Shown here piece after piece: positions 1,424-44,529 of a stretch of 64,000 nucleotides of DNA. The stretch is from Candidatus Omnitrophota bacterium (GTDB lineage Bacteria; Omnitrophota; Gorgyraeia; Gygaellales; Profunditerraquicolaceae), in NCBI GenBank assembly GCA_030650425.1, contig JAUSED010000003.1, positions 263,903-327,902 on the forward strand, read 5' to 3'. Numbering within the stretch: position 1 is the first letter of the stretch; each line of letters opens with the position of its first letter. The notes beneath the pieces are model-generated. The model was not told where the DNA came from, made no database searches, and worked only from the letters and a program-made list of their open reading frames with translations. A program made the translations under genes and the position numbers.

Positions 1424-2012
1424 GAAGATTATAATTGGCGTTACCGGAAGTTTCGGGAGCGGTAAAAGCACGGTTAGCGGAATACTTGCCGCTTACGGAG
1501 CGCGGATTATCGATGCCGATAAAATAGCGGCAAACTGCCTTAAGGCCGGAAGCAGGATTTACCAAAAGGTAATTTCAGCCTTTGGCGATAAGGTTATCGC
1601 TAAAGATGGCGAGATTGACCGGGCCGGCTTAGCTAAGATTGTTTTTAACGATAAGAAATTATTGAAAAAGTTAAATCATATTGTCCATCCTGAGGTAATC
1701 AGGATGATTAAAGCAAAAATTGACAGTATAAAGAAAGGAGTGATTATTTTGGATGCGCCTTTATTGCTGGAGGCGGGTTTGGTGAAGGCGGTAGATAAAT
1801 TAATTGTGGTAACCATAGATCCAGATACGCAAATTAAGCGTCTGCTTAAGAAAACGCGCTTAAAGAGGGCAGATATCCTGAAAAGAATAAGGTCTCAGAT
1901 TTCGCAAAACGCGAAGTCACGTTTTGCGAATTTTATTATAGATAACAGTAGTTCGTTGCGGAGTACAAAAAAACAAGTATTACAAATAAGGAGGAAGTTG
2001 TGGAAAAGTTAG
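1401..2012 (+). CDS. coaE: dephospho-CoA kinase
   Basis: 203 aa. P-loop [12 protein letters not shown] at the N-terminus and CoaE-like length. Overlaps the glgA 3' end. Confidence 0.85.
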
Positions 2013-3256: not shown

Positions 3257-3283
3257 CCAAGCCAGAAAAGGAGAGTAAAAAAA

Positions 3284-3484
3284 ATGAAAGACAAGATTCA
3301 TCCCAACTACAAAGAAAGCACGATTATCTGCGCTTGCGGAGAGACAGTGCATACCCGTTCGACCAAACCTTCGGTAAGAGTAGAAATCTGTTCGAAGTGC
3401 CATCCGTTTTTTACCGGAAAACAGAAATTTGTTGATTCTGCCGGTAGGGTGGATAAGTTTCTTAAGAAATACGGTAAAAAATAA
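3284..3484 (+). CDS. rpmE: 50S ribosomal protein L31
   Basis: 66 aa. MKDKIHPNY start and CxxC...CxxC zinc-binding pattern typical of L31. Confidence 0.95.
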
Positions 3485-4554
3485 TGTTTGAACAGCTGCA
3501 AAAATTAGAAGCGCGCTACAACGAGCTGGAAGGGCTTTTGAGTTCTCCGGAGGTGCTTAGCGACCGTGAGCGATCGAATAAGTTGGCTAAGGAGCTCTCC
3601 GATATAAAGGAGCCGGTTGCTTTATATCGTGAGCATAAACGCATCTTAAAAGAACTTCAGGAATTAGAAGTTGTTTCCAAAGAAAAACACGACCAGGAAT
3701 TCCTGGATTTAGCCAGTAAAGAGCTGGTAGAGCTTAAGGGTAAGCTGCAAGAGATAGAGACAAAAATAAAAGAGGCCTTTACCGGGAAAGATAAAGACGC
3801 CGGACACGATATCATTGTGGAGATACGTCAGGGGACGGGCGGAGATGAAGCCGGTTTATTTGCCTCGGATCTTTACCGGATGTACACAAAATACGCGGGA
3901 AACAAAGGCTGGTCAGTGGAATTAATGTCAGCGGCGACTAATGAATCCGGCGGTTTTAAAGAAGTATCTTTTAGCGTAAAAGGTAAAGACGCCTATAGCA
4001 GGTTAAAGTTTGAGAGCGGAGTGCACAGGGTACAGCGCGTTCCGACAACTGAATCGCAAGGAAGGATTCATACTTCGACGGCGACAGTGGCGATTTTAGT
4101 CGAGCCGGAAGAGGTGGATTTAGTGATTGAGCCTGCCGATTTAAGGATCGATACTTACCGCTCAAGCGGCCCGGGCGGCCAGCATATGCAAAAAACCGAT
4201 TCCGCGGTGCGCATTACGCATCTTCCTACGGGGGTCGTGGTTGCCTGTCAAGACGAGCGTTCGCAGTTAAAAAATAAGAACAAGGCGATGAGAGTTTTAC
4301 GCGCCAAGCTCCTTGATGCTAAACGAGAGGCCGAGTCCAAGAGATTATCTAAAGAAAGAAAATCCCAAATCGGTTCAGGGGACCGGAGCGAGAAAGTCCG
4401 CACTTATAACTTCCCGGATCGCAGAGTTACGGACCATCGTATAAATTTTACTACCCATCAGTTAGAAGCTGTACTGGAAGGTGATTTTGATGAAATATCT
4501 GAAGCCCTGATTAAAGCGGAAAAAGAGCAGAAACAGAAGGCGTCTTATGAATGA
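3484..4554 (+). CDS. prfA: peptide chain release factor 1
   Basis: 356 aa. GGQ motif (SGPGGQHMQKTDSAVRITHLPTG) and RF1-type PxT region (RVPTTESQGR). Sits in the conserved rho-rpmE-prfA-prmC-murA synteny. Confidence 0.9.
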   Translation: MFEQLQKLEARYNELEGLLSSPEVLSDRERSNKLAKELSDIKEPVALYREHKRILKELQELEVVSKEKHDQEFLDLASKELVELKGKLQEIETKIKEAFTGKDKDAGHDIIVEIRQGTGGDEAGLFASDLYRMYTKYAGNKGWSVELMSAATNESGGFKEVSFSVKGKDAYSRLKFESGVHRVQRVPTTESQGRIHTSTATVAILVEPEEVDLVIEPADLRIDTYRSSGPGGQHMQKTDSAVRITHLPTGVVVACQDERSQLKNKNKAMRVLRAKLLDAKREAESKRLSKERKSQIGSGDRSEKVRTYNFPDRRVTDHRINFTTHQLEAVLEGDFDEISEALIKAEKEQKQKASYE

Positions 4555-5332
4555 AGCGGAATTATTATTTAGCCAGGTTTTAGGCTGCGATCGGCTGGCC
4601 TTATCTTTAAACAAGGATCGGTATTTAGGCAGGGAAGAGCTCGATTTTATTACTTGTAGCCTGAAGAGAAGAATAAAAGGCGAACCCATTCAATATATTT
4701 TGGGTAAGATGGAGTTTATGGGGCTAGAGCTAAAGATAAAACAAGATGTGCTGATTCCCCGGCCGGAGACAGAGATACTCGTTCAAACAGCGTTAAAATA
4801 TATTAAGCAGGAAAAATCGCGAAAGATCCTGGATTTAGGGACAGGTTCAGGCTGTATCGCCATATCCTTAGGCAAAAATTCAGCGAATCTAGAAATAGAT
4901 GCCAGCGATATCTCGAGTTCGGCTTTAGCCGTTGCTAAAGAGAACGCGGGCTTAAACGGAGTAAAGATAGATTTTGTGTTGAGCGATTTATTTAGGGGGC
5001 TAAGAAATAAAAAATATGATCTGATTACCAGTAATCCGCCTTATGTTAGAGAGGGAGAAATTACAAAATTGCAGCCAGAGTTGCAATTTGAGCCTAAGCT
5101 TGCTTTAAATGGCGGGCCAGACGGATTAGATTTTTACCGCCGTATAATTTCAGGCTCAGCAAATTATTTACAAAAAAACGGCCTCTTAATTATGGAGATG
5201 GGTTTTGAACAAAAGCCCGATATAGAAACAATATTTTTAGATTTAGGAAAATTTAAGTTAATAGAAGTTATTAAAGATTACAATAATATTGATAGAGTGA
5301 TTGTGGCAAGAAAGGCAGACATAAATGGATAA
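4547..5332 (+). CDS. prmC: release factor glutamine N5-methyltransferase PrmC (HemK)
   Basis: 261 aa. SAM-binding DLGTGSG and NPPY catalytic motif. Directly follows prfA. Confidence 0.85.
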   Translation: MNEAELLFSQVLGCDRLALSLNKDRYLGREELDFITCSLKRRIKGEPIQYILGKMEFMGLELKIKQDVLIPRPETEILVQTALKYIKQEKSRKILDLGTGSGCIAISLGKNSANLEIDASDISSSALAVAKENAGLNGVKIDFVLSDLFRGLRNKKYDLITSNPPYVREGEITKLQPELQFEPKLALNGGPDGLDFYRRIISGSANYLQKNGLLIMEMGFEQKPDIETIFLDLGKFKLIEVIKDYNNIDRVIVARKADING

Positions 5333-6587
5333 ATTAGTGATTGAAGGCGGAATAAAACTTAAGGGTGAAGTCACGATATCAGGGGCCAAGAACGCGGTCC
5401 TTCCCATACTGGCGGCGACCCTGCTTACTGATGACGCCTGCATTATTAAAGGCGTGCCGGATCTGCGCGATACGAATACCATGATAAAAATATTGCGTTC
5501 TTTGGGGAAGGACGCGGATTTAGAAAATGGTATTGTTTCGGTCAGTAGTCTGAAGAAGACAAATTGTGTCGCGGATTATAAACTGGTTTCTACGATGCGC
5601 GCGTCTTTTTGTGTTCTAGGCCCTCTATTAGGTAAATTCAAGAAAGCCAAAGTTTCTCTTCCCGGCGGCTGCGTTATCGGTGTGCGGCCGGTGGATTTGC
5701 ATTTAAAGGGGATAAGGGCGCTGGGTACGGAGGTTAATGTCGAATCCGGTTATGTGATTGCCAAGGCTAAAGAATTAAAAGGCAGCCATATTTATTTAGG
5801 CGGGGTCTACGGTTCATCTGTTTTGGCTACGGATAACGTAATGATGGCCGCGGTATTGGCCAGCGGAAAAACTGTGATTGAGTCCGCTGCCTGTGAGCCG
5901 GAAGTAGAGGATTTAGCGGAATTTCTGATTAAGATGGGCGCCAAGATTAAAGGCCATGGCACGCCTATCATTGAGATAGAAGGGGTGCGTCATTTACACG
6001 GCGCCAGCCACACAATCATCCCTGACAGGATTGAAGCAGGGACCATGATGTTGGCGGCTTTAATTACGCGCGGAAATATCCTGATTAAAAATGTTTTTTA
6101 TAAACATTTAGGCGCGCTCATTGACAGGCTGGAAGAAGCAGGCGCGTTAATGACTAAGACAGAAAATACTATACACATGCGTTATAGAGGACAGCTTAAG
6201 GCTATAAATATCAATACTCTTCCCTATCCGGGTTTTCCTACGGATATGCAGGCTCAGATGATGAGCTTAATGAGTGTGACCCCCGGTATAAGCGTGATTA
6301 CCGAAAAAATATATCCGGACAGGTTTATGCATGTAGCTGAACTTAACCGGATGGACGCGCGTATTCAGAGGGAAGGCCCGCACGCTATTGTTGAGGGGAG
6401 AGAAGAGCTTTCCGGAGCTCCGGTGATGGCTTCGGATCTAAGGGCTTCGGCGTGTTTAGTGCTTGCCGGTTTAGCCGCGAAAGGTAAAACCTCCATCTCC
6501 AGAATTTACCACTTGGAGCGCGGGTATGAAAATATGGAGGAAAAATTAGAGAAACTGGGGGCTAAAATTTGGAGAGAAAAAGAATGA
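5325..6587 (+). CDS. murA: UDP-N-acetylglucosamine 1-carboxyvinyltransferase
   Basis: 420 aa. EPSP-synthase fold; N-terminus LVIEGG..L.G.V.ISGAKNA is characteristic of MurA. Confidence 0.95.
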
Positions 6588-7147
6588 TTTTAATGATTGA
6601 TAATTACGATTCGTTTACCTATAACTTGGTGCAATATTTGGGTTCGTTGCATCAGGAGGTAAAAGTATTTCGTAATGATAAAATTAGCGTGGAACAGATC
6701 AAGAAACTCTCACCTAAGAAAATCGTTATTTCTCCCGGGCCGGGCCGGCCGGAAGACGCGGGTATTTCTTGCGCGGCGGTAAAAGAATTAGCCGGAAAAA
6801 TTCCTCTTTTAGGAGTTTGTCTTGGGCATCAGGCTATAGGCTATGCTTACGGAGGAAAGATCGTCAATGCGAAGAACCTAATGCATGGGAAGACTTCAAT
6901 GATCTATCATAACAATAAGGAGATATTTAAAGGCCTGCCTGATCCTTTTGAAGCGACGCGCTATCATTCCTTGCTTGTAGAAAGAAACAGTCTTCCTGAA
7001 TGTCTTGAAATAACCGCTTGGACTAAGGAAAAAGAGATTATGGGATTAAGACATAAACAATATCCTCTTTGGGGAGTGCAGTTTCATCCCGAATCTATTC
7101 TTACTAAGCGCGGAATAGATATTTTAGCTAACTTTGTCAATCTATGA
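6584..7147 (+). CDS. trpG: anthranilate synthase component II / glutamine amidotransferase (TrpG/PabA)
   Basis: Class-I GATase ([15 protein letters not shown]..., catalytic Cys in GVCLGHQ). ATG at 6584 overlaps the murA TGA as ATGA, with a GGAGAG RBS upstream. The ORF track begins 15 nt earlier at 6569. Confidence 0.85.
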
Positions 7148-8154
7148 TGATCAAGGAAGCGATCAATAAACTTATCGCGAAGAAAGATCTTACTGCCGAA
7201 GAGATGCAAGGCGTAATGTATGATATTTTAAACGGAGTCACTGAAACCGCGGATATTATCGCTTTTCTGACTTCTCTAAACGAAAAGGGAGAGACAGTAG
7301 AAGAGCTTACCGCGGCGGTCGAGATGATGCTTAAATATGTTGACCCGATCATCGTGGATAAACCGAATATACTGGATACCTGCGGCACGGGAGGGGACAA
7401 AAAGGGGACCTTTAATATCTCGACGATCAGCGCCTTGGTGGCGAGCGGCGCCGGAGTGATTGTGGCTAAGCATGGGAACCGTTCAGTTTCCAGTTCGTGC
7501 GGAAGCGCGGATATTTTAGAAGCCTTGGGCGTAAATATAAATATGGATAAGGCAAAAATAAAAAAGTGCCTCGAAGAAATAGGTATTGCCTTTTTATTCG
7601 CGCCAAAACTGCATCCAGCGATGAAAATTGTTTACCCGGCGCGTAAGCAGATCGCGGGTAAAACAATGTTCAATATCTTAGGCCCGTTAATTAATCCTGC
7701 CCGGGCGACCAACCAATTGATCGGGGTTTATAGCCCCCAATGGCCGCCGATCTTAGCCCGTGTTTTGCATAATTTGGGCTCAAAGCATGTTTTAGTCGTG
7801 CATGGAGCTGACGGTTTGGATGAGGTGACCACCGCGGATAAGACCTTTATTGCCGAGGTAAACCATGGTGAATTTAAAGATTACGAAATAAAACCGGAAG
7901 ATTTTGGTTTTCAGCGCGCTCGTCCGGAAGATTTATCAGGAGGCAGTTTATTTGATAATGTGCAGATTGTTTTAGATCTTTTAGAAGGAAAAGACGGATT
8001 TAAACGCGATATAGTTTTGTTAAATTCCGGCTGCGCTATTTACGCCGCGGATAAAGTCAAATCAATTAAGCAAGGGATAGAGTTGGCAAGGCAATCGATA
8101 GATAGTAAGGCAGCCTTAAGAAAGCTGGAGCTATTGAAGGAGTATTCGCGTTAA
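7144..8154 (+). CDS. trpD: anthranilate phosphoribosyltransferase
   Basis: 336 aa. GTGGD and KHGNR motifs of TrpD. Confidence 0.9.
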
Positions 8155-8945
8155 TGTCAAAAATAGACAGGTTGAAAGAAATTATCTTAAAGAAAAAAGA
8201 GCGCCTAGCCTTGGCCAAGCAGCAAATTCCTGAGGAGGAATTGAAGGTAAGGGTTCAGGCGGTTACGCCTGCCAGGGCCTTTATTGAGGCGATCAAGAAA
8301 CCCCACCAGATTTCCCTGATTGCTGAGATAAAGAAGGCTTCTCCTTCGCAAGGAATTATCCGTCAGGATTTTAACCATCTGGAGATTGCCCGCGCTTATC
8401 AGGAAGCGGGGGTACAGGCGATATCGGTTTTAACCGAAGAAGACTACTTTCTAGGAAATATTTCTTATCTTAATGAAATTAAAAACCTGGTCAGCGTTCC
8501 GGTATTGCGTAAAGATTTTATCCTCGAGCCATATCAGGTTTACGAATCACGTTTTTACGGCGCTGATGCAATACTTCTTATAGCGGACCTACTCACGCAG
8601 GATGAAATCCTGCAATTTACGGCAATCGCCGCGGAATTGGGTATGGATTCTTTAGTGGAAGTGCACAACGAGAAAGAGTTGAAGAAGGTATTAAAATTAA
8701 AAGGCGTAGCGCTGATCGGGATAAATAACCGCGACCTGCGCACTTTCGAAGTTGACCCTAAGACTACCGAAAAATTGTTTACCCTTATTCCTAAAGATAA
8801 GCTGGTGGTGGTAGAGAGCGGGCTGAAAACTTATCAGGATATTCTCTTCTTAAAAATATTGGGCGTGCATGCTGTTTTGATTGGCACAGCTTTTATGCAG
8901 GCGGAAAATATCGCGGATAAAGTTAAAGAACTAATGGCATGGTAA
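8154..8945 (+). CDS. trpC: indole-3-glycerol phosphate synthase
   Basis: 263 aa TIM barrel with the IAEIKKASPS and LRKDFI motifs. Confidence 0.9.
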   Translation: MSKIDRLKEIILKKKERLALAKQQIPEEELKVRVQAVTPARAFIEAIKKPHQISLIAEIKKASPSQGIIRQDFNHLEIARAYQEAGVQAISVLTEEDYFLGNISYLNEIKNLVSVPVLRKDFILEPYQVYESRFYGADAILLIADLLTQDEILQFTAIAAELGMDSLVEVHNEKELKKVLKLKGVALIGINNRDLRTFEVDPKTTEKLFTLIPKDKLVVVESGLKTYQDILFLKILGVHAVLIGTAFMQAENIADKVKELMAW

Positions 8946-9550
8946 AAGTAAAAATTTGCGGGATTACTAATTTGGAAGACGCGCTAGCCAGCCTGTTTAG
9001 CGGCGCCAGCGCTATCGGCTTTGTATTTTATAAACAAAGCCCCCGTTTTATCGAGCCGATAAAGGCAAGCAATATTTCGCGAATCCTTCCTAAAAATATT
9101 TTAAGGGTCGGCGTATTTGTCGATGAGCAGGAGGCAAAAGTCAAAAAGATTGCTAAGTTATGTCACCTGGATATGCTCCAATTTCACGGGAATGAGGCCC
9201 CGGAATATTGTAAGAAGTTTAAGGTGTATAAAGTGATCAAGGCTTTTAGGCTGGATAAAAAATTAGATTTATCCGAGATATCAAAATATAGAACCTTTGC
9301 CTATCTTTTTGATACTTTCTCTAAAAACAAAGCCGGAGGCACAGGAAAAAAGTTTAACTGGAATTTATTGAGGAATATAGATAAAATAAGTGGTCAGGTT
9401 TTTCTATCCGGCGGCCTGACTAGCGCAAATGTAAAAAGCGCGATAAAAAAGCTCCATCCGGATTGGGTAGATGTTTCCAGCTCGGTGGAATCCAGGCCGG
9501 GTAAGAAGGATCATGCAAAAGTTAAGAAATTTATCGAGGCGGTAAAATGA
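8939..9550 (+). CDS. trpF: phosphoribosylanthranilate isomerase
   Basis: 203 aa. [10 protein letters not shown] start; PRAI TIM barrel. Position between trpC and trpB. Confidence 0.85.
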
Positions 9551-10731
9551 AGAAGCTACCTGACAAATTTGGGCATTTTGCGGAATTCGGCGGCAGGTTT
9601 GTGCCGGAAACGCTTATTTTTGCCTTGGATGAACTGGAAAATGAGTACAAGAAGTCTAAGTATGACCGAAAATTTAATGCCGAATTGAAGTATTATTTAA
9701 ATGAATACGCTGGCAGGCCAACGCCCCTATATCTTGCCAAGAAATTAAGCGATTATTTTGGGATAAATAAAATATATCTTAAGCGGGAAGATCTTTTGCA
9801 TACCGGAGCGCATAAAATCAATAATACCTTAGGGCAGGCGCTGCTTTGCCTGCGGATGGGAAAGAAGCGGGTAATCGCTGAGACTGGCGCAGGCCAGCAT
9901 GGCGTTGCCGCTGCTACCGTTGCCGCTCTTTTTGGTTTAAAATGCGATATTTATATGGGTGAAGAAGATATACAGAGGCAGAAGCAGAATGTTTTTCGTA
10001 TGCACTTATTGGGCGCGCGGGTCATTCCGGTAAAAAGCGGATCCAAAACCCTCAAAGACGCGATGACTGAAGCTTTGCGTGATTGGGTGACCAATGTGCG
10101 CGATACGCATTATATTATCGGGACAGTCGCCGGGCCGCATCCTTATCCAATGTTAGTCAGGGATTTCCAGTCTATCATCGGCAAAGAAGCAAAAATTCAA
10201 CTTAAGAAAAAGGGGATTGCCTTACCTGATTATTTAGTCGCTTGCGTTGGCGGAGGAAGTAATGCTATGGGATTATTCTATCCCTTTGTCGACACCAAAA
10301 AAGTAAAATTTATCGGCGTGGAAGCCGGCGGTAAAGGCCTCTCTACGGGAAAACACGCGGCCACTCTGGTTAACGGAGATATCGGAGTGCTGCACGGTTC
10401 AAAATCAGGGCTTTTAGAGGATAAATTTGGGCTTGTTATGCCTACGCATTCGATTTCCGCGGGTTTGGATTATCCGGGAGTAGGGCCTGAGCACGCTTAT
10501 TATAAGAAGATCGGCCGGGCTGAATATGTTTCGGTTAATGATAACGAAGCGCTAGAAGGATTTAATTTACTCTCGAAGTTAGAAGGTATCATCCCGGCTT
10601 TAGAATCCGCTCATGCCATTGCTTACTTAAAAAAATTAGCCAATAAAATCAATAAAAAATCCACGGTTATAGTTTGTCTCTCTGGCAGGGGCGATAAGGA
10701 TTTGGGGATAGTTACCAAAGGCAGGATATGA
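9547..10731 (+). CDS. trpB: tryptophan synthase beta chain
   Basis: 394 aa. PLP-lysine motif HTGAHKINN. Confidence 0.95.
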
Positions 10732-11513
10732 ATCGCATCGATAAAAAATTTAAAGAATTAAAAAAAACCAGAAGAAAAGTATTCATTGCCTTTATTACCG
10801 CGGGTTTCCCAAGTTTGGCTGTAACTGAGCAGCTAATTTATGAATTTGATAAAATTGGCGTGGATATTTTAGAGTTAGGAGTGCCTTTTTCCGATCCGAT
10901 GGCTGACGGCCCGGTAATTCAGGAAGCTTCTCAGCAAGCCCTAAAGAAAAACACGCATCTAGTCGATATATTGAGACTGGTGAAAAAGGCGCGTAAAAGC
11001 GTAAATATCCCGATTTGCCTAATGACTTATTATAATCCGATATTTTGTTTTCCGGATAAGAAGTTTATTGGCGAGGCAAAAAAATCCGGAGTAGATGGAA
11101 TAATCATTCCGGATCTACCTCCTGAAGAGGGGAGAGATTTTATCAAGGCCGCGCATTATGCCGGGTTGGATACGATATGTTTCCTTTCGCCTACCAGTTC
11201 CTTAAAAAGGATAAAATTTATCTCCAAGGTTTCAAAAGGATTCATCTACTACGTTTCTTTGACAGGAGTAACCGGCGCCCGTAAGAAGCTTGGGGAGGAT
11301 ATCCGCAAAAATATTAATTTGATTAAAAGATATACTAAAAAGCCGGTTTGTGTCGGTTTTGGGGTTTCCACCGCGTCTCAGGCAAGAGAGGTCAAGAAGT
11401 TTAGCGACGGAGTAATCATTGGAAGCGCGATCGTAAAAAAGATAAAAGAGAATATTGGTTCGCCTCTATTAATCAAGAAGGTAAGCAACTTTGTAACCCA
11501 ACTTAAGTCATGA
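10728..11513 (+). CDS. trpA: tryptophan synthase alpha chain
   Basis: 261 aa. [17 protein letters not shown] motif. Confidence 0.9.
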
Positions 11514-12787
11514 AAAATATCTATCATAAAGCGCGGCTAAATAACGGATTGAGGATTATTAGCCATGTTATTTCCGAGCGTCACTCTGCCGCCTTAGGTA
11601 TCTGGATATATGTCGGAGGAAGGTATGAAACTAGCGCGAATAAAGGGATCTCACATTTTTTAGAACATATTTTATTTAAAGGAACGAAAAAATACTCTTG
11701 CCGCCAGCTTAAGGAATCAATCGAGGGGATCGGTGGTTCCCTCAATGGTTTTACCTCTGAAGAATCCACCTGTTATCTGGTTAAGGTTCCCGCCAGCCGC
11801 ATCAATATCGGTTTAAGCGTCTTATCGGAGATGGTCATCAATCCGACTTTACCCGCTCAAGAGATTGAAAAAGAAAAAACCGTAATTCTGGAAGAGCTAA
11901 AAATGTATAAAGATCTTCCTCAAAGTTATGTATATGAGCTTTTGGATGAGTTACTTTGGCCAAATCAGCCATTGGGCGCGCCGATCATAGGAACGGTTGA
12001 TTCTGTAAGGGCTATTGACCGTAAGAAGCTGGCAGATTTTAAAGAAGAACATTATACAACCTCCAATATTGTGGTGAGCGCCTGCGGAAATATAGATTAT
12101 CGTCAATTAGAGCGAGGCGTAGAGAAAATATTCTCTAGCCTTAAAAGCGAAAGGCTGAATACTTTTACTGAGGCAAAAGAAAAACAAGGTAGGCCGGGTC
12201 TGAAAGTTTTTCCTAAGGATACGGAGCAAACGCATATGGCTTTGGGTTTTAGAAGTTTTAGAAGAGAGCATCCCTTAAAGCATGCCTTGGGTTTACTGCA
12301 TATTATATTAGGCGGAAATATGTCGAGCCGCCTCTTCAATGAATTAAGGGAGAAGCGCGGGCTGGCTTATGAAATAGGGACATTAGCCAAGCGTTTTCAG
12401 GATACAGGCGCGTTTGTGGTGCACGCCGGCATCGACAATAAAAAAGTATCCGAGGCGATTCAATTGATCCTGAAAGAATTAAAAAAGACGAAGGATCATT
12501 TGGTTACTGCCGATGAATTCAGGCGGGCTAAAGAATTCTATATTGGACAGTTAAAACTTGCGCTGGAAGATACCTTGGAATATATGCTTTGGATCGGCGA
12601 AAATACCCTGATGTTAGGCAAGACTTTTTCTTTGGATGAAATTATCGCTGAGGTAAACCGCGTGGATAGAGCGGATATCCGCGAGGTAGCGCGGAAGGTA
12701 TTTATCGACGATAATATTAACTTGAGCCTGATCGGCCCGTTGGCCGGAAAAGAAAATAAAATACGTCAAGGATTATACATAGGATAG
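11510..12787 (+). CDS. M16 family zinc peptidase (insulinase-like)
   Basis: 425 aa. Inverted zinc motif HFLEHILFKG (HxxEH) near the N-terminus plus a C-terminal inactive M16 half. Confidence 0.8.
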   Translation: MKNIYHKARLNNGLRIISHVISERHSAALGIWIYVGGRYETSANKGISHFLEHILFKGTKKYSCRQLKESIEGIGGSLNGFTSEESTCYLVKVPASRINIGLSVLSEMVINPTLPAQEIEKEKTVILEELKMYKDLPQSYVYELLDELLWPNQPLGAPIIGTVDSVRAIDRKKLADFKEEHYTTSNIVVSACGNIDYRQLERGVEKIFSSLKSERLNTFTEAKEKQGRPGLKVFPKDTEQTHMALGFRSFRREHPLKHALGLLHIILGGNMSSRLFNELREKRGLAYEIGTLAKRFQDTGAFVVHAGIDNKKVSEAIQLILKELKKTKDHLVTADEFRRAKEFYIGQLKLALEDTLEYMLWIGENTLMLGKTFSLDEIIAEVNRVDRADIREVARKVFIDDNINLSLIGPLAGKENKIRQGLYIG

Positions 12788-34190: not shown

Positions 34191-34228
34191 AAATTCGTAG
34201 CGGACATTTAAATGTCCGCTACGAATTT
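34191..34228. repeat. perfect 38-bp palindrome (19-nt arms, no spacer) in the ribD-ribE intergenic region
   Basis: AAATTCGTAGCGGACATTT|AAATGTCCGCTACGAATTT. It shares the GGACAyTT-AArTGTCC core with other palindromes in the window and swallows the upstream ATG at 34212. Confidence 0.8.
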
Positions 34229-35003: not shown

Positions 35004-35033
35004 GGGTAGGGGACACTTAAGTGTCCCCTACCC
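35004..35033. repeat. perfect 30-bp palindrome GGGTAGGGGACACTT|AAGTGTCCCCTACCC immediately 5' of the giant-ORF RBS
   Basis: 15-nt arms with no spacer. It ends 1 nt before the AGGAGG RBS at 35034-35039 and belongs to the GGGGACA-core palindrome family. Confidence 0.8.
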
Positions 35034-35045
35034 AGGAGGCCATCA

Positions 35046-38000
35046 ATGCGTTCATTAAGAAAGGTTTTATCCTTAGCTTTAATTCTAAGCCTACTCTTCC
35101 AGCAAATCGGCTTTGCCCAGATTGCTAGCGAGTTAAATATCGCCGGTTATCTCTCCCGGATGAGTAGCAATCTCTCAGTAGAAAAATTCCGTCCCGCGCA
35201 CCTGCGTTACTTCTCCTATAATAGTCTAAATGACAACTTCAAGGTACTCTTAGATAAAGGAGACTCTCCTACCAGCAGGGGACATTTTCCGTCAGGGCTA
35301 TCAGGGAACTCTTTAAAGGAAAGTGTCCCCTGGGACAAGGCTAAGCTTCAATCCGAAACCCAAACCCTGCTTAGTTATTTCCTCATAGGCGTAACCCTTC
35401 CAGATTCTATGTTCTGGGTCAACCTACGCCCTGACTCCGAAGACCAGATCATTGACCAATACTTAGAGAAAACAGACGTAGGCAGGATTATGCTGGAAGC
35501 TGACCTCCAGCTCAAGAAAGACACCGCTCAAATGACCTCTCCAGCTACCCCTGAAGGAAGAGAATACTGGGATAGGCTCTATAAGAAAGCCGCCGACCTT
35601 TACGGCTATGACAATGTGACTATTCCCACCTTAACCCGTCCTTGGATTGTTCCGGGTGAGATTATAGTCAGAGAGTCTAAAGATAGCGCCTATATCTATA
35701 AAGCTACGCTAAAAGTTATGCTAGAGCAGGATTACCTAAAGAGCTCCAAACTCCAAGCCCTAAGTTCTCAGTCAGACTATTCTTTTAAAGATATTCGCTC
35801 TAAAGCTCTTAATGAATACTCTACCCAACTAATCAAAGAACTAATTATTCCTAAACTTACTAAAGAAGTCAACTCATCCAAAAGATACGCTCCCCTAAGA
35901 CAGGTCTATTACTCTTTAATCCTCTCCCGCTGGTTTAAGCAGAAATTCAGAGGACTCTCCAAACCAGCAGGGGACATTTTCCGTCAAGGCTCTCACGAAG
36001 CAACTCAAAGGAAAGTGTCCCTTGCCTTTGTTAATCTTATCGATACCAAAAACCTCACCAACCTCATCTCCAAAGACTCCTGGAGCAAAACCGACTACTT
36101 CAAGCAATACCAGAAGTCCTTCTCCTCAGGCGAATACAATATCCAAGAGTCGGTGTATACTCCCACAGGCCAAGTTATCCGCAGCTACTTTAGCGGGGGG
36201 ATACAGATGGATGGAGCAGGAAGCCCGATAAATAATCCAGTTGGTTTTACTAACCTTGCTGATAAAGGAGATAGATTCTACAAAATTTCCAGAGGTGCAA
36301 ATCTAATAGGGATGGAGGGAAATTTTCGCACTGGGATTAAACTTTCCGCCGGTTCGCTGGTTGAGCTAACTGTGGAAGAGAAGAATAAGGTTTTGGAGAT
36401 TAGCAGCATACTTACCGGGATAAATGAAGCTACGCTAACTAATTCCGCGAAAATTGGCGAGATTAGAGAAAAATTAGGGGAAGTTCCGCTTATGGGACGT
36501 GTTGATTACATTTTCTCTTATGTACCAGGAAGCCAGATGACTCAAATGAAAAAAGTTATTATCCAAACACGGATCAAAGTTTTACGAAATAGTATTGTGG
36601 CTGATGTAGACAAGCGTCTTTCCGAACTCCTAAAAGGATTCAGAGAGATTAAAGGGATATCTGGCTCACCGGTAGAATTGACACCGGAAGACAGGAGGCA
36701 GATAGAAGAGATCCTTGGGCCAATAGACGAAGTCAGAGGTATAACCGATTACAATAGAATATCACCTATTGAAGGTAGATTAAAAACAGAAATACCGATG
36801 CAAAAGATTATATTGTATGCTCAAGAGTTTTTAAGCCCAGACCATGATCCTTCGCCGCTTCCAGTTAATAGAAGAGTTATCTTAGCAATAAAGTCTATTG
36901 TACTGCTTAGAACCATTATCGGCGAGAGCATTAAAGAAAGCACGCTGGCAGTTACGAATGCCCGTTTTATCGAAGAGCTCGCTCAAGTACGAGCCAATAT
37001 GTCTAATGGTGTTGCTTTATTAGCGGGCTACAATACATTTATAAGTAGATTGCAATTGCCTGATGAGTTTGTACATTTGAGGCTTTTCTCCGATAGCATA
37101 ATAGAAACATTTAATCAGATTAAACAAATATTCGATGCAAAGTCCTCCAATTCTCCGGTTAACCCGAAAGAATTAAAGAGGCTTGAGACAGCGATTGCCA
37201 ACGTAGCTGGTTCTATTTCTCCTGAGAAAAGAATGGAAGCTCTAGAGCGGGACTTAAAGGGTTTTCCGCTAACAGTGCTCAGAGTAAAGAAAGAGGAAAT
37301 GGAATCAAACACTGGTAATCATAACAATGATGACGCATTATATTCTGCGCTGTGTAATATTATCGCTGATAAAGAAAACCCATCAAGTCCCAATAACGAT
37401 AACCTATTAGGAGACGGTTCGATTAGGCAAAAACTCGAAAGTGTAACGCCGGCAACCGCACTAGATCGTGATGCAATGATTGCAAAAATCGAAGAATTAT
37501 CGAAAATCTCTTCTTTCTCTCTTGAAGAATATAAGAGAAGTGTGGCGAGGAATCCGGCAATAGATAAACGCAGGCGTCTTATACAAATAGAATTGTTAGG
37601 TGCGGCTATCGAAAAGAAAAAATCCAAAAATAATAAACCTGAAGCTTCCTCCGGTTCGCCGGTAGATAGGATTACAAAAGAGGAAGCCGAGGCTTGGCTT
37701 AGTCATAATATTAAGATACCAGAAAAAGTTGACTTGAACACTGGAATAGGCAATCATCCTAAGGAGTTTTCTCTTAATAAAAAAAGAATTAAAGAAGCCA
37801 TATATCCATTCTTGATGAGTTTACCAAGATCTGTTGAGCCGGAGAAGTTTGAATTTACATTTGAATTATCGAGTGTTTGGGTTTTAACGATTAGGGTACG
37901 CTATGGCGGTGAGACCAAAACAAATCCGCTAGTATTTCGTTTCTATTATCCCTATATTGAAGCTAATAAGTTTGACTCGGAAAAGTTAGCTGATGTAGAA

Positions 38001-41000
38001 AACACAATCATAGAAGAGATAAAAAGGGATTTTGTTTATAGGATTTTTGGACATTTCTACGGTGAACCATGGAAGCCTATTGAGGAATTTATCCAGATTT
38101 CTTGGAACAAGACAAATGATAACAGCAATTTGTATTTAGGAAAACAGTATCAAGGAGGCTTGAAGCCCGACTCATTTTTAGCTAAAGGCTCTCATGTTAA
38201 AAAGTATGGAAACGATACGCCAGTCGTTGATTTTATGGAGCTCTTGGATGCTTGGTTACAAGAAGGAGAGGCGGTATTTAGTGTTCCTGAAGCTACGCCT
38301 GAAGAGACAAGAAAGCAGGCAGAGCAAAATTTAGCATTTTTTAAGCTATACTTTAATAGAGATCTATCTGGTTCGCCGGATCAAAAATTCAACAGCTCGC
38401 CGATAGAAAAAAGCGATTCAAAACCAATAATATTGATTGTTGATGATGACGAAAATATTAGATGGATGATTAAAAATGAATTAAGGAAACAAGGTTTTGA
38501 GCCGGATCAATTATTGGAGGCTGAAAGCGGAGAAGAAGCCTTGAAAATATTAAATAAACAAAGAATAGACCTTGTTTTAAGTGACTATAACATGCCGTCC
38601 GGGATAAATGGGGGAGAGCTTTATGTGAAGATGTCAAAAAGCGCTGCCCTAAACAAAATCCCTTTTGTGATGTTAACCGGTGATCCAGATTCTGTAAGGA
38701 AAGAGCTTAAGCTTCCTGAGGGTGTACAGATACTTAACAAGTTCGCATCATTCGCGGAAGTTATTTACCCTGTTATGTTATCATTAATAAATGACAAGGA
38801 AAGAAAACCAGCCGTCGGCTCGCTGACTGAAACTTCTAAAGAAAATAATCCAGTCAACTCGCCTATTTTTAAAACGAAATTTTCAGCTAATGAGTTTACT
38901 AGTAAGGAAGGATTAATACAAGACCTGAAAAAGCTCGACGGGTTTCTTAAGGGAAAGGAAGGAAATGGCGAGCTTGTTTTTACGCTCAAATGGCTTGAAT
39001 GGATTAGTTTGGATAGAAGTTGGCGTGAAGGATTAATTGATTTACCAGATACTTCGGATTTCATCCTTAACTTCGCTAAATTTATTCATTTGTATTTATC
39101 AGAAACAGGGATAGGGAATGTTTCTCTTAAAGATAAACTAAATATAGCTAACAAACTTTGGGTGCGCCATTTAGAATTTATTGATAAATCCGGACAAATT
39201 GTACCGCCTCACCAAGCATTTTATTCTTATCGGTTTGCCAGCGAGATTAAAACACAAGGCGAAGTTGCTCTGCGTTTTTCCGTAGCTAAATCTGCGGTAG
39301 AGAAGGTGCGTTGGGCAGTTGAAAGTATCCCTGCAATGAGGGTGCGGTTGGATACTCTGGCGTTAGATACGGGATTATCTGTTGATGAGGTTATCGAAGC
39401 GCTAAAGACTATTAACGAAAAACGGAATGATTATGAGCTTCAAGGCGATATTCTTATTATCCCGAAAGTAACAAATGATTACTTGGATTTTAGGCCTTTT
39501 AGTGAAGAAGCGCGCCGATTAGGAGAGGCCTTACAGAATTTCGGTCTTCCAGAAGATGTAACGGTGATTATGCAATCATCAGGGTTGACTCTTGAAGGAT
39601 TGAAGTTTGCAGTGCAAGAGGCTAATGCTGTCAAAATATATAGGCCAACACTTGAGGTGCGCGATAGTAAGCTTACCTTTTTTACATACGATAGTAAAGG
39701 CAATCCGGTATATCCTAGTGCAGAGATGCCGTTAATAGTTCAGAGGAATACCAGCGATTCTGCTCTAGCCAGCTCGGCGATGCAGGTGAAGGATGCAGGG
39801 TTACCGGGTTTGCTTGGAGAAGATTTTAGCAAAGCGGATGTTAAAGTAATGCCGTTTGTGCTTAGTCGAGATGAAATTCCTGGTAAAGTTTTTAGTATTA
39901 TAGAAGCAACGTTAAAAAACCTTGAGAAGGATTTTCGTGGAATTTTGATTGAAAGACGAAACGGCCTGCTTTACGCTATAGACAAAGAATCCCAAGGAAC
40001 TTTACCAATTGATAAATCTAAGTCCATTACAACTCTGAAAGAAATTCTAGAAGCGGATTATTCTGAAAATCAACAGTTTACTTTTGTATGGATAAGTACT
40101 TCTGCTTATTCTGCGTTGGAGATAAGGCCTAAATATCCGTTGGCCGCCGGTTCGCCGACAACACTTGAGGAAGCGGTAAAATTTTTGCATTTTTTACAAG
40201 TGAATTGGATGCGTTTTCAGATTAGAGATGAGGAATCTTTTAAATATTTTGAGGAGCATGATAATAAGTTAGATAATGTAGATAATAGAATAGTCTATTC
40301 TGTGCCTCCAAATAAAAATGTAGCTGGGGGTTTTAATTTCGTAGTTAAAGATAGCGTAGAGCCGGAACAATTATTGGAGCGAGTTTTAAATTTCATAAAC
40401 GGAAGAAAAATCGTATGGAGCAATGAAAAAGAGCAGAAGGAAATCGCAGAAGGAATTACCACTAAGCTTAGTTCCTTAAGGCAAGCCAGCTCGGCGATGC
40501 AACAGGTTGAACCGGTTAACGTGAGAATGGTTGAAGCTGAAGAAGGGATAATAATACGAGGGGAGGTTGTAGTTCCGGCTGAAGTGAAAAACGGTCAATC
40601 AATAATGAGAATAAGGGTAGCAGGTGAAAATAGCGTGATTGTACTATTTAGTCTTCAGTTTTATAAGGGTACTGCCTTTGTGAGCGAAATCCTAGGAAAA
40701 CGAACATTTCTTTCGGGAACACCAAAGATAGAGTCACATGCCATAAAGTTTGATACAATTAAAGACATCTTGACAGTAGAGACACGAGATCCATATTGGA
40801 ATGGATATGAATATAAAGCAGATGTTATTTCATCCAGCTCGGCGGTGGAATTAAAAGAGGGGAATAAGTACTCTTTTTATGGGAAATACGGTTTATTGCG
40901 AGGTTGGGAGATAAAAATAAATAAACTTTTTGAAGACGGTAGTATTGAAGTAACGTTGGTTGAGCCCGAAAGCAAAGCAGGGAAGGCGTCCATAAAGAAC

Positions 41001-41525
41001 GTAGTTTTCAGGAATAAAAATGATCTGCAGGGATTTGTGCGAGAGTTGAGTGCGTGTGAACTTGGCACTTATCAGGTTGAGCCGTTACCAGTAACAGTAT
41101 TTACAGATTTTTTTAGGAATGCTGAAGATTTTGCGCGACGTTCCTCTGTTAGTTCTGCGATAGATGAGACTCAGAAGACTCCCGGCGGTATCGACTTCCG
41201 CGTTCTGCCTATGACTATCCAGCCAATGGGAAGCTTTACCGGTTTAAACTTTAAGCTGCCACAGCTAACGCAAAGAGAGTTGGCCAAGATGAATATTGAT
41301 TTAGAGATACAGCAGATTCAGAATATGGCTTCCTCCGGTATCCTTCCTTCTGGCCGGCGAATCAAAGAATTAATCGCCGCTTGTGTGCAAAAGAAGGAGA
41401 TTACTGCCCGCGCGGATAATCTCTTGCTCTGCCTTATAGATATCTGTAAGCTGGAAGAAGAGAACGCCTATGATACCGAGCCGGAGATGAAAGAGGCATT
41501 GGTAATAGTAGATTCAGTTAGCTAA
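35046..41525 (+). CDS. giant secreted/envelope protein of unknown function (2159 aa) with N-terminal signal peptide and an embedded CheY-like receiver (REC) domain
   Basis: Uninterrupted 6480-nt ORF, far beyond chance in AT-rich DNA. Strong AGGAGG RBS. N-terminus MRSLRKVLSLALILSLLFQQIGFA-QIA looks like a cleavable signal peptide. Residues ~1126-1245 (KPIILIVDDDENIRWMI...DLVLSDYNMP...VMLTGDPD) match a response-regulator receiver domain. No other domain recognised. Followed by a strong terminator. Confidence 0.8.
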   Translation: MRSLRKVLSLALILSLLFQQIGFAQIASELNIAGYLSRMSSNLSVEKFRPAHLRYFSYNSLNDNFKVLLDKGDSPTSRGHFPSGLSGNSLKESVPWDKAKLQSETQTLLSYFLIGVTLPDSMFWVNLRPDSEDQIIDQYLEKTDVGRIMLEADLQLKKDTAQMTSPATPEGREYWDRLYKKAADLYGYDNVTIPTLTRPWIVPGEIIVRESKDSAYIYKATLKVMLEQDYLKSSKLQALSSQSDYSFKDIRSKALNEYSTQLIKELIIPKLTKEVNSSKRYAPLRQVYYSLILSRWFKQKFRGLSKPAGDIFRQGSHEATQRKVSLAFVNLIDTKNLTNLISKDSWSKTDYFKQYQKSFSSGEYNIQESVYTPTGQVIRSYFSGGIQMDGAGSPINNPVGFTNLADKGDRFYKISRGANLIGMEGNFRTGIKLSAGSLVELTVEEKNKVLEISSILTGINEATLTNSAKIGEIREKLGEVPLMGRVDYIFSYVPGSQMTQMKKVIIQTRIKVLRNSIVADVDKRLSELLKGFREIKGISGSPVELTPEDRRQIEEILGPIDEVRGITDYNRISPIEGRLKTEIPMQKIILYAQEFLSPDHDPSPLPVNRRVILAIKSIVLLRTIIGESIKESTLAVTNARFIEELAQVRANMSNGVALLAGYNTFISRLQLPDEFVHLRLFSDSIIETFNQIKQIFDAKSSNSPVNPKELKRLETAIANVAGSISPEKRMEALERDLKGFPLTVLRVKKEEMESNTGNHNNDDALYSALCNIIADKENPSSPNNDNLLGDGSIRQKLESVTPATALDRDAMIAKIEELSKISSFSLEEYKRSVARNPAIDKRRRLIQIELLGAAIEKKKSKNNKPEASSGSPVDRITKEEAEAWLSHNIKIPEKVDLNTGIGNHPKEFSLNKKRIKEAIYPFLMSLPRSVEPEKFEFTFELSSVWVLTIRVRYGGETKTNPLVFRFYYPYIEANKFDSEKLADVENTIIEEIKRDFVYRIFGHFYGEPWKPIEEFIQISWNKTNDNSNLYLGKQYQGGLKPDSFLAKGSHVKKYGNDTPVVDFMELLDAWLQEGEAVFSVPEATPEETRKQAEQNLAFFKLYFNRDLSGSPDQKFNSSPIEKSDSKPIILIVDDDENIRWMIKNELRKQGFEPDQLLEAESGEEALKILNKQRIDLVLSDYNMPSGINGGELYVKMSKSAALNKIPFVMLTGDPDSVRKELKLPEGVQILNKFASFAEVIYPVMLSLINDKERKPAVGSLTETSKENNPVNSPIFKTKFSANEFTSKEGLIQDLKKLDGFLKGKEGNGELVFTLKWLEWISLDRSWREGLIDLPDTSDFILNFAKFIHLYLSETGIGNVSLKDKLNIANKLWVRHLEFIDKSGQIVPPHQAFYSYRFASEIKTQGEVALRFSVAKSAVEKVRWAVESIPAMRVRLDTLALDTGLSVDEVIEALKTINEKRNDYELQGDILIIPKVTNDYLDFRPFSEEARRLGEALQNFGLPEDVTVIMQSSGLTLEGLKFAVQEANAVKIYRPTLEVRDSKLTFFTYDSKGNPVYPSAEMPLIVQRNTSDSALASSAMQVKDAGLPGLLGEDFSKADVKVMPFVLSRDEIPGKVFSIIEATLKNLEKDFRGILIERRNGLLYAIDKESQGTLPIDKSKSITTLKEILEADYSENQQFTFVWISTSAYSALEIRPKYPLAAGSPTTLEEAVKFLHFLQVNWMRFQIRDEESFKYFEEHDNKLDNVDNRIVYSVPPNKNVAGGFNFVVKDSVEPEQLLERVLNFINGRKIVWSNEKEQKEIAEGITTKLSSLRQASSAMQQVEPVNVRMVEAEEGIIIRGEVVVPAEVKNGQSIMRIRVAGENSVIVLFSLQFYKGTAFVSEILGKRTFLSGTPKIESHAIKFDTIKDILTVETRDPYWNGYEYKADVISSSSAVELKEGNKYSFYGKYGLLRGWEIKINKLFEDGSIEVTLVEPESKAGKASIKNVVFRNKNDLQGFVRELSACELGTYQVEPLPVTVFTDFFRNAEDFARRSSVSSAIDETQKTPGGIDFRVLPMTIQPMGSFTGLNFKLPQLTQRELAKMNIDLEIQQIQNMASSGILPSGRRIKELIAACVQKKEITARADNLLLCLIDICKLEEENAYDTEPEMKEALVIVDSVS
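35271..35330. repeat. ~60-nt hairpin element copy A inside the giant ORF (GGGGACATTTTCC - 27-nt loop - GGAAAGTGTCCCC)
   Basis: ACCAGCAGGGGACATTTTCCGTCAGGGC...AAAGGAAAGTGTCCCC. A near-identical copy lies 692 nt downstream in a different reading frame. Confidence 0.7.
35963..36021. repeat. ~60-nt hairpin element copy B inside the giant ORF
   Basis: ACCAGCAGGGGACATTTTCCGTCAAGGC...AAAGGAAAGTGTCCC. The first 24 nt match copy A except for one substitution, but it is read in a shifted frame (PAGDIFRQG vs SRGHFPSG). Confidence 0.7.
38421..38790 (+). other. receiver (REC/CheY-like) domain segment within the giant ORF
   Basis: KPIILIVDDDENIRWMIKNELRKQGFEP...EEALKIL...RIDLVLSDYNMPSGINGGELYVKM...IPFVMLTGDPDSVRKEL. 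Acidic pocket DDD, phospho-acceptor Asp (LVLSD) and conserved T/K positions are present. Confidence 0.7.
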
Positions 41526-41528
41526 AGG

Positions 41529-41567
41529 AAAAGGTGACAGTCACGCACTTCGTGACTGTCACCTTTT
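41529..41567 (+). terminator. strong hairpin terminator downstream of the giant ORF
   Basis: AAAAGGTGACAGTCACG-cactt-CGTGACTGTCACCTTTT: a 17-bp perfect stem flanked by A4/T4, so possibly bidirectional. Confidence 0.75.
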
Positions 41568-41583
41568 CTAGTGAGTTAAAAGA

Positions 41584-41604
41584 CGGGGACAGTCCCCATT
41601 TTTT
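41584..41604 (+). terminator. short GC hairpin GGGGAC-A-GTCCCC followed by T6 (secondary terminator / GGGGACA-family palindrome)
   Basis: ACGGGGACAGTCCCCATTTTTTC. The arms match the GGGGACA repeat family. Confidence 0.4.
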
Positions 41605-41611: not shown

Positions 41612-41640
41612 TTGCTAACCCAAATAATTTCTGGTATACT
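41612..41640 (+). promoter_or_regulatory. sigma70 promoter TTGCTA-17-TATACT for tRNA-Pro
   Basis: TTGCTA at 41612-41617 and TATACT at 41635-41640, 12 nt upstream of the tRNA 5' end. Confidence 0.55.
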
Positions 41641-41652: not shown

Positions 41653-41729
41653 CGGGGCGTGGCTCAGTTTGGTAGAGCGCTTGGTTCGGGACCAAGAGGT
41701 CGACAGTTCAAGTCTGTCCGCCCCGACCA
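41653..41729 (+). tRNA. tRNA-Pro (anticodon CGG)
   Basis: Cloverleaf with acceptor CGGGGCG/CGCCCCG, D-arm GCTCAGTTTGGTAGAGC, anticodon stem CTTGG/CCAAG with loop TTCGGGA (CGG), T-arm GGTTCAAGTCT and an encoded CCA. Confidence 0.9.

Positions 41730-42007: not shown

Positions 42008-44525
<2,518 letters not shown>

Positions 44526-44529
<4 letters not shown>

Follow-up and report, generated by a model that had tools for sequence, protein, structure and literature searches.

The Omnitrophota are widespread, ultra-small and largely uncultured bacteria, at least some of which live as predators or parasites. Their most conspicuous genomic trait that still awaits an explanation is the possession of very long proteins. 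Earlier work has reported that long Omnitrophota proteins with a signal peptide carry receiver (REC), PGM, PPDK and other metabolic domains (10.64898/2026.06.07.730766; 10.1101/2023.11.21.568195). Here, we analyze a protein of 2159 amino acids that is encoded in a stretch of 64,000 nucleotides from a Candidatus Omnitrophota bacterium (assembly GCA_030650425.1, contig JAUSED010000003.1; the whole stretch is called the window below). The original prediction, made from the letters of this stretch, saw in it what would be a novel giant signalling or adhesion factor. We show that it is one paralogue of a large and ancient Omnitrophota family, whose members consist of a leader, a conserved N-terminal module (N module), interchangeable cargo separated by a short junction motif and a conserved C-terminal module (C module). 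Our confidence in this architecture and in the family membership of the 2159-residue protein is high, and the unit of novelty is the family and its architecture, not the single gene.

The described proteins that come closest are the long or giant multi-domain proteins of Omnitrophota ("Archaeovorins", "multi-enzyme metabolic clusters"). They belong to the same phylum, carry an N-terminal signal peptide as the family does and likewise consist of strings of unrelated domains, including REC (PF00072), PGM/PMM and PPDK, with large domain-free stretches in addition. Both pose the same puzzle of metabolic domains that look exported. However, Archaeovorins have at least 10,000 residues and many transmembrane helices, whereas the 2159-residue protein has one hydrophobic segment. 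They contain C39/S8 peptidase, SecA-like, glycosyltransferase or dockerin domains, none of which is found here by Pfam, and they are linked to an upstream locus resembling a type II secretion system and to downstream PilZ genes, while the neighbours of our gene are housekeeping genes. Neither the N module, the C module nor the junction motif was found described in the two studies (10.1101/2023.11.21.568195; 10.64898/2026.06.07.730766), and our search of the literature found no account of the family.

Three further groups of proteins share single features with the family. Cellulosomal enzymes, which serve as an analogy only, also place a Sec leader and a conserved terminal module on unrelated cargo and use Ser/Pro-rich linkers. 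However, the 2159-residue protein has no dockerin (PF00404), cohesin or Ca-binding repeats, family members carry a further conserved module at their N-terminal end, and what they carry as cargo is of the cytoplasmic type and not glycoside hydrolases. Conserved terminal targeting modules on variable, often very large cargo are also known from the cargo of type IX secretion, a system of the Bacteroidota, and from the exoproteins of type I and two-partner secretion (TPS). The C-terminal domain of type IX cargo is a beta-sandwich, whereas the C module of the family is predicted to be a helical bundle, and RTX repeats, the TPS domain, the Por C-terminal domain and dockerin gave no Pfam (E <= 1) or NCBIfam (E <= 0.01) match. 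Viral polyproteins and MARTX-type toxins resemble the family in that a short conserved motif marks each domain border of a long open reading frame (ORF). In contrast to these, no protease domain was detected in the family, and its genes are bacterial, chromosomal and embedded among housekeeping genes.

A large family with conserved ends

When the full 2159-residue query was compared with 5.8 billion proteins, at least 915 matches were obtained, and the parts common to them are only residues 1-400 and 2040-2159. The named sources of these matches are Candidatus Omnitrophota or Omnitrophica, or plainly "bacterium". The 119 best relatives are 1206-3772 residues long and each of them covers only 17-26% of the query. 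Their identity to it is 55-75% over residues 1-400 and 40-79% over residues 2040-2159, with essentially nothing in between. An exhaustive HMMER search with residues 1-420 against 1.84 billion cluster representatives (50% identity) matched 7,370 representatives, whose identifiable sources are Omnitrophota; the E values go down to 1e-176, and 4,908 representatives have E <= 1e-30. In the best 150 of these 7,370, which are between 410 and 5745 residues long, the N module stands at the extreme N-terminus; the exception is P0165, where it starts at residue 66. The GTDB species genomes contributed 455 confirmed stretches with the N module, and 80 of these were kept. The kept stretches carry mostly Omnitrophota labels, and up to four come from one metagenome-assembled genome (MAG). 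A few loci (L012, L025, L027, L077 and others) are labelled as MAGs of Planctomycetales, Deltaproteobacteria and Thermodesulfovibrionia, probably because Omnitrophota contigs were put into the wrong bin or given the wrong name; if these labels were correct, the family would reach beyond the Omnitrophota. As it stands, the family is very large, apparently undescribed and apparently found only in this phylum. Given the thousands of independent contigs involved, it is very unlikely that the shared ends are an artefact of assembly or annotation.

The C module is found in 182 of the 216 family proteins that were collected, and most of the proteins that lack it look like contig-truncated fragments. 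Its length is fixed, with a mode of 113 residues from the invariant GGIDF/L (GGIDF at residue 2047 in the 2159-residue protein) to the stop, and conservation extends to the extreme tail, L[RK]EALVIVDSxS-COOH. One relative, P0160 (537 residues), is a minimal member that consists of the N and C modules only. The 2159-residue protein has all the parts that define the family, namely the leader with the N module, the C module and the motif-delimited cargo (Table 1).

Table 1. Features of the gene for the 2159-residue protein and of its immediate surroundings, in positions of the window
Feature	Position	Strand	Description and basis
Look-alike of the hairpin, 2 mismatches, GCGGACATTTAAATGTCCGC	34200-34219		at the ribD/ribE junction
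Perfect 13-bp hairpin, GGGTAGGGGACAC-TTAA-GTGTCCCCTACCC	35004..35033	+	abuts the ribosome-binding site on its 5' side
Shine-Dalgarno sequence AGGAGG	35034..35039	+	6 nt 5' of the ATG; read from the sequence
Coding sequence	35046..41525	+	ATG start, 2159 residues plus stop, complete; GenBank MDO8662035.1
Putative Sec-type leader, residues 1-24, MRSLRKVLSLALILSLLFQQIGFA	35046..35117	+	hydrophobicity and family conservation
Conserved N module, residues 25-390	35118..36215	+	family-defining, alpha/beta, ends with SYFSGG
Orphan modules A-D, residues 396-543, 544-705, 706-873 and 874-1120	36231..38405	+	bounded by junction motifs
Cargo module E, CheY-like REC, residues 1121-1274	38406..38867	+	Pfam core at residues 1129-1216
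Orphan modules F-J, residues 1275-1579, 1580-1705, 1706-1818, 1819-1934 and 1935-2039	38868..41162	+	bounded by junction motifs
Conserved C module, residues 2040-2159	41163..41522	+	TPGGIDFRVLP to EALVIVDSVS-COOH; sequence comparison
Tandem intrinsic terminators	41527..41604	+	just 3' of the stop codon
tRNA-Pro(CGG)	41653-41729		3' of the terminators

AlphaFold2 models were obtained for the N module of the 2159-residue protein from 26 sequences (predicted local distance difference test, pLDDT, 68; predicted template-modelling score, pTM, 0.65) and for P0160 from 36 sequences (pLDDT 73, pTM 0.71). In P0160 the core of the N module reaches a pLDDT of 85-96 and the C module about 90, while the linker is disordered. 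In the predicted N module, two beta-hairpin sheets and a number of long helices accompany the leader helix, and in the predicted C module GGIDF forms a short strand ahead of a helical bundle. For a chain of two modules the pTM is relatively high, which hints that both modules may pack together. Searches with structure and profile gave no match to the N module, and the structure search with the C module returned generic or designed helical bundles only. Neither of the two modules matched Pfam in any of the 36 members scanned. Alignment to the 119 relatives reveals no invariant His or Cys in the N module, which speaks against this module being a self-processing protease.

The nearest relative of an N module usually lies in another genome and not in a paralogue of the same genome, so that concerted evolution of N modules within genomes can be set aside. 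Thus, the paralogues are old, and an identity of at least 55% has been kept by selection and not by gene conversion. Genes beside family members are housekeeping genes such as rsmI, glmS, gyrA/B and dnaN, and the family genes are therefore stable chromosomal genes that do not belong to an island. In the loci examined, no dedicated transporter, protease, kinase or other partner gene linked to the family genes was found.

These data change the status of the protein. A unique, lineage-specific giant surface adhesin or signalling factor with the receiver as its functional centre, as it had been imagined, would agree with the fact that the 1,615 residues of the middle (421-2035) have no detected homologue except the REC domain and the first half of module F, and with the protein being a singleton cluster at 90% identity. 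However, both of its ends, about 510 residues, belong to a family of thousands with unrelated cargo, the receiver is one cargo of many, and neither adhesin-type domains nor repeats are present. We therefore consider this explanation very improbable. The original prediction had named no domain apart from the receiver. This holds for the curated libraries, which recognise REC only, and about 1,500 residues (396-1120 and 1275-2039) are indeed left without detected relatives, but the ends turned out to be family modules. It also stands that the protein does not belong to an ordinary known family, as profile searches leave most of its length unassigned. What looked like a dark-matter giant ORF thus becomes a member of a defined, testable family with head and tail modules.

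Cargo of the relatives

For the 119 best relatives, the cargo between the conserved ends was tallied from precomputed Pfam assignments. Central-carbon enzymes are found in 52 of the 119 (about 44%), other domains in 29 and no Pfam domain in 38. The first group includes PGK, enolase, TIM, GAPDH, iPGM, PGM/PMM, cupin-type GPI, FBA, FBPase, FBP aldolase/phosphatase, PEP synthase/PPDK, transketolase, transaldolase and sugar kinases. The second group comprises HEAT, TPR, guanylate and adenylate kinase, methyltransferases, HD, DnaJ, FHA, MutS, HPr kinase, metallophosphoesterase, transglutaminase, HATPase_c and REC. Direct scans of single members detected PGK and TIM, both almost complete, in P0059 and P0073, FBA together with partial TIM and PGM in P0062, HATPase_c in P0100 and REC in P0115. 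In P0073 (3600 residues) the NAD-binding part of GAPDH (residues 391-490) and its C-terminal part (residues 1021-1156) are about 530 residues apart, and PGK was matched as two stretches. Some of the enzyme cargo may hence be partial or interrupted by large insertions, and its catalytic competence is uncertain. For metabolic reconstructions of Omnitrophota this has a practical side: where PGK, GAPDH and enolase are counted, the count may include bracketed and possibly exported fusions.

That thousands of proteins with unlike cargo carry the same two invariant terminal modules has its simplest explanation in shared handles, by which these proteins would take a common route to a common destination. 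We propose that the leader would thread the unfolded chain through Sec and that the N and C modules would be common handles, read by one shared machinery or scaffold. These handles would bring the varied cargo to the same envelope, surface or prey-facing location and hold it there. The free, conserved C-terminal tail would suit recognition by a partner. The junction motif would serve as a linker at domain borders or as a processing site and, in addition, as an in-frame joint for the exchange of modules between paralogues. Of the readings considered we favour this mechanism of export and assembly handles and, taken together with the architecture, give it moderate confidence; export, cleavage of the leader, localisation and any binding partner of the N and C modules are inferred.

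Several points weigh against these export handles. The C-terminal part (c-region) of the leader, FQQxGFAQ, is far more conserved than that of an ordinary signal peptide, neither terminal module resembles a known secretion, anchoring or docking domain, and the family genes come without a linked gene for a dedicated transporter or partner. The junction motif is missing from 24 of 215 family proteins. Moreover, almost all identifiable cargo is of the cytoplasmic type (REC, PGK, GAPDH, PPDK, kinases, DnaJ). It requires ATP, NAD or a phosphodonor, which speaks against an ordinary destination in the periplasm or outside the cell. This need for cytoplasmic cofactors, which includes the receiver, keeps two other placements alive, a cytoplasmic scaffold and a delivery to, or action on, the cytoplasm of prey. 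The question can be put more sharply than before: do central metabolism and signalling of these bacteria take place in the cytoplasm, in the envelope, at the surface or inside prey? The family architecture adds a further form to the long modular proteins already known from Omnitrophota, and an undescribed sorting, assembly or polyprotein system could stand behind it. More tentative is the extension to a phylum-wide sorting and assembly system, in which thousands of proteins with a Sec leader and both brackets, among them a large share of the glycolytic and other central-carbon enzymes as well as kinases, chaperone-like and signalling modules, would be built from motif-delimited cassettes that are swapped in frame at a joint with a conserved nucleotide sequence; we regard this as possible, though not likely. 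If it were true, the result might be a segregated or extracytoplasmic "exo-metabolon", or an enzyme coat that acts on the cytoplasm of prey or host. Alternatively, bacteria might here make true polyproteins and shuffle their domains by a mechanism dedicated to this purpose.

Leader and topology

The N-terminus of the 2159-residue protein reads MRSLRK, then VLSLALILSLLF, then QQIGFA and Q. It has a positively charged n-region, a hydrophobic h-region of about 12 residues and small residues at -3 and -1, and signal peptidase I is predicted to cut after G-F-A, so that the mature protein would start at Q25. Residues 1-24 thus look like a Sec-type signal peptide, in agreement with the earlier reading of the letters. 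Residues 6-26 are the sole strongly hydrophobic stretch of the whole protein; one marginal peak lies at residue 611. In the family, FQQxGFA is found near the N-terminus in 117 of the 216 collected proteins, with an n-region charge of +2 to +4 and a median hydrophobic run of 12. The c-region FQQxGFAQ is conserved across the family and Q20 is invariant. This c-region may serve for specific recognition, or it may belong to the fold.

The same segment can be read in another way. The hydrophobic helix might stay uncleaved and act as an anchor or oligomerisation helix, with the cargo on the cytoplasmic side of the membrane, where the N and C modules would organise a membrane-associated metabolon or a signalling hub. 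On that side the receiver could obtain its phosphate, and glycolytic enzymes carried by sister proteins would be able to function. The unusual conservation of the leader c-region would fit such a scaffold, and so would the AlphaFold2 models, in which the leader is a single long helix that runs on into FQQIGFAQ. The recognisable cargo of the family, all of the cytoplasmic type and dependent on ATP, NAD or a phosphodonor, and the catalytic residues kept in the receiver agree with it as well, and a placement at the cytoplasmic face has been argued to suit what many long Omnitrophota proteins contain in regulatory and metabolic domains (10.64898/2026.06.07.730766). However, the charges before the hydrophobic stretch put the N-terminus inside, and a single span would then leave the bulk of the protein outside, as there is no second hydrophobic segment that could return the chain. 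With about 12 residues, the h-region is shorter than a membrane span and therefore too short for an anchor, and it is followed by a canonical small-x-small site. We consider the scaffold an unlikely alternative to the export handles.

The junction motif

The borders between the modules are marked by a short peptide, first seen as repeats of GSPV, SSPI, SSAM and SSAV, with the consensus A-S-S-[P/A]-[V/I/L] and an enrichment of about 13-30-fold. Six tetrapeptides, SSPV, AASP, SSAV, ASSP, ASSA and AGSP, are over-represented 17-25-fold in the variable middles of family members. Densities were determined with the pattern [AGSN][SAG]S[PA][VILMT], and the pattern [AGS][SAG]S[PA][VILM] was used as family criterion. 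The motif occurs 3.7 times per 1000 residues in the 2159-residue protein and 0.12 times in the other 40 proteins of the window, a 30-fold excess. The corresponding values in 79 related loci are 1.6 for family ORFs and 0.12 for non-family ORFs. Depending on the strictness of the pattern, the 2159-residue protein has 8-12 sites, at residues 392, 540, 702, 870, 1109/1117, 1271, 1576, 1702, 1815, 1931 and 2036.

These positions delimit about eleven modules of 105-305 residues, one of them the REC domain and about ten of them orphans. Each has a globular-like composition and none resembles another; no internal repeats or duplicated modules were found in the protein. The motif also follows the N module within 60 residues in 119 of 178 proteins, precedes the C module by at most 25 residues in 111 of 165 and stands directly before GGIDF. 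In relatives with identifiable cargo, it is found at both edges of TIM and of enolase and before FBA and PGK. The first half of module F matches residues 1564-1717 of P0039 (E 3e-8). In both proteins a junction motif immediately precedes this match, and in P0039 the following motif closes it, which identifies the motif-bounded modules as the units that have been shuffled.

The motif has a signature at the level of DNA. Its Ser before Pro or Ala is encoded by TCG at 44% of 300 sites (background 9%), its Pro by CCG in 54% (background 29%) and its Ala by GCG in 60% (background 22%). The bias extends to the third positions of the two codons in front. The DNA consensus is approximately GCC-AGY-TCG-SCG-GTn and is confined to about 15 nt. 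In the gene of the 2159-residue protein, TCG is the rarest Ser codon (18 of 187) and is used at 9 of 12 motif sites. The pair TCG-SCG encodes 33% of the S-[P/A] pairs that belong to motifs; for S-[P/A] pairs elsewhere in these genes its share is 4%, and in non-family genes it is 7%. The difference within the same genes excludes a general codon-pair effect. The signature could possibly reflect joints of common descent, left by an in-frame, microhomology-guided exchange of cassettes. A translational pause by rare codons at domain borders is possible too, as is a signal at the mRNA level. Motif and codon signature together point to possible in-frame domain shuffling or polyprotein processing in bacteria.

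What the motif does on the protein could be one of several things: it could be a protease site, a sequon of the O-glycosylation type, a conserved linker or the scar or joint of cassette exchange. If it were a protease site, the 2159-residue protein would be a precursor that is cut into about 11 proteins, with the receiver freed as a response regulator of one domain. Delivery would then be the only role left to the N and C modules, or they would be removed, and this reading fits with export. A flexible linker would not need so specific a motif of four to five residues, conserved at essentially every border. The motif also lies between the N module and the first cargo and between the last cargo and the C module, and A-S-S, as a run of small residues, recalls a recognition site of the -3/-1 type. 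Cleavage of Omnitrophota giant proteins has also been proposed by West-Roberts et al. (10.1101/2023.11.21.568195). However, neither the 2159-residue protein nor the bracket modules show a protease domain, invariant His or Cys residues are missing from the N module, and a linked protease gene was not found at the family loci. Pro at +1 blocks signal peptidase I, and 24 of the 215 members lack the motif. The targets of PglL-type O-glycosylation are Ser residues in Ala/Pro-rich linkers, and the motif would also fit a sequon of this kind or a plain conserved linker. We consider a polyprotein an unlikely alternative to the export handles. Together with the N module and the C module, the junction peptide can be used as a concrete reagent.

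The receiver domain

Module E is the one part of the middle that could be assigned. Searches of the 2159-residue protein against Pfam, NCBIfam, PHROGs, PADLOC and PDB by sequence and profile found REC only, next to low-complexity noise in the variable region. PF00072 matches residues 1129-1216 with 52.6 bits (cut-off 30.2, E 6e-14), and the NCBIfam models of CheY, DivK and PhoB match the same region. The alignment to the CheY homologue 3h1g pairs VDDD with VDDS, LSDYNMP with ITDWNMP and MLTG with MITA. The acidic pocket (VDDDE), the phospho-acceptor Asp in LSDYNMP and the Thr in MLTG are therefore kept, while the Lys in NKF lies outside the aligned stretch and was placed by eye. Judged by these residues, the domain looks genuine and catalytically competent, and the internal receiver recognised from the letters is thereby confirmed.

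Like CheY-type single-domain receivers and REC domains of hybrid proteins, module E has the acidic pocket and the Asp, Thr and Lys residues. It differs from the usual receivers in that its conserved Lys is followed by Phe and not by Pro, and in that it sits behind a signal peptide among orphan modules. Neither a DNA-binding, GGDEF, kinase or other known output domain nor a linked histidine kinase goes with it; Pfam, NCBIfam, PHROGs and PADLOC detected no output domain in the protein. Among the ORFs examined in the window there is no kinase gene. The combination of an export signal with a phospho-acceptor of the cytoplasmic type is hence a real topological puzzle, as had been noted before.

The receiver is bounded by junction motifs (NSSPI at residue 1117 and NSPI at residue 1271) and behaves as one cargo among others. 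It is present in only two of the 120 listed proteins, the 2159-residue protein and P0115, and its position in P0115 differs, where motifs at residues 1917 and 2041 flank it. Both facts add to the case against a unique signalling factor centred on this domain. The gene of P0115 (locus L080; GCA_020063045.1, JAGUVC010000038.1, positions 1-12477) lies directly downstream of a complete F-type ATP synthase operon (atpB-E-F-H-A-G-D-C) and is co-oriented with it. In the mechanism of export and assembly handles proposed above, the receiver might be a switch that, depending on its phosphorylation, controls the orphan modules next to it or the assembly. The phosphate could come from a kinase-type (HATPase_c) cargo in another family member; P0100 carries an ATPase of this type. 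Our confidence in any statement on what the orphan modules and the receiver control is low. In GenBank the protein is named "response regulator", a label that accounts for 4-7% of its length and is a misleading name for this gene.

The gene and its surroundings

The database entry MDO8662035.1 is 100% identical to the 2159-residue protein and comes from a Candidatus Omnitrophota MAG, on a contig of 359 kb. An ORF scan found no other long ORF at this position, and at a GC content of about 41% an open frame of 2159 codons is not a product of chance. The gene is therefore real and continuous, as had been predicted, and the ribosome-binding site before its ATG and the strong terminator before tRNA-Pro are likewise borne out. 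One may still ask whether the frame is decaying, chimeric or misassembled, because the middle has no detectable relatives. However, 6.5 kb are open, ribosome-binding site and terminator are in place, both ends retain intact conserved modules, the composition of every module is globular-like and the gene is co-oriented in a dense housekeeping region of a long contig. A non-functional ORF can practically be dismissed.

The hairpin that abuts the ribosome-binding site folds with -31.7 kcal/mol (z = -5.5) and could possibly stabilise the 5' untranslated region or control translation. It is local to this gene and not a trait of the family: the upstream regions of 81 family genes fold no more strongly than those of control genes, which rules out a family-wide 5' hairpin or leader RNA. 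Rfam matched the tRNA only and revealed no leader RNA. At the other end of the gene, the first terminator has a 19-bp stem (41527-41569) and the second consists of the GGGGACAGTCCCC hairpin (41578-41604, with 41585-41597 within) followed by U6; folded together, both hairpins reach -43.7 kcal/mol (z = -7.6). The unusual palindromic elements that the original prediction saw around the gene are thus real as hairpin and terminators, but they do not amount to a repeated element of note, as the window contains one exact copy of the hairpin and one look-alike with two mismatches. The GGGGACAGTCCCC hairpin has the arm GGGGACA in common with the hairpin at the ribosome-binding site. These two hairpins and the look-alike may form a small family of palindromic elements, or their likeness may be a coincidence.

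The gene lies between riboflavin genes and tRNA-Pro/acyP/ligA, as had been read from the letters: a PHP phosphoesterase gene, ribD and ribE stand upstream, acyP and ligA downstream. The remaining window is filled with co-oriented housekeeping genes (argS, recJ, pnp, ftsK, ribBA and genes for an AddA-like helicase-nuclease and radical-SAM enzymes), and no further copies of the family were found in it. All ORFs of at least 200 residues at positions 1-64000 are on the + strand, except one shadow ORF, and the GC skew is positive across the same positions. The window therefore lies on the leading strand and has an extreme gene-strand bias. An ORF of 177 residues (43996-44529) overlaps the stop codon of ligA by 4 nt and has no Pfam or NCBIfam match. 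A promoter-like site is located at 41612-41640, ahead of tRNA-Pro(CGG), and the frame of acyP starts with ATG 41732/41735, only 3-6 nt past the end of the tRNA at 41729. Since acyP is in turn separated from ligA by a gap of 1 nt, tRNA-Pro(CGG) seems to be co-transcribed with acyP-ligA, downstream of this promoter-like site.

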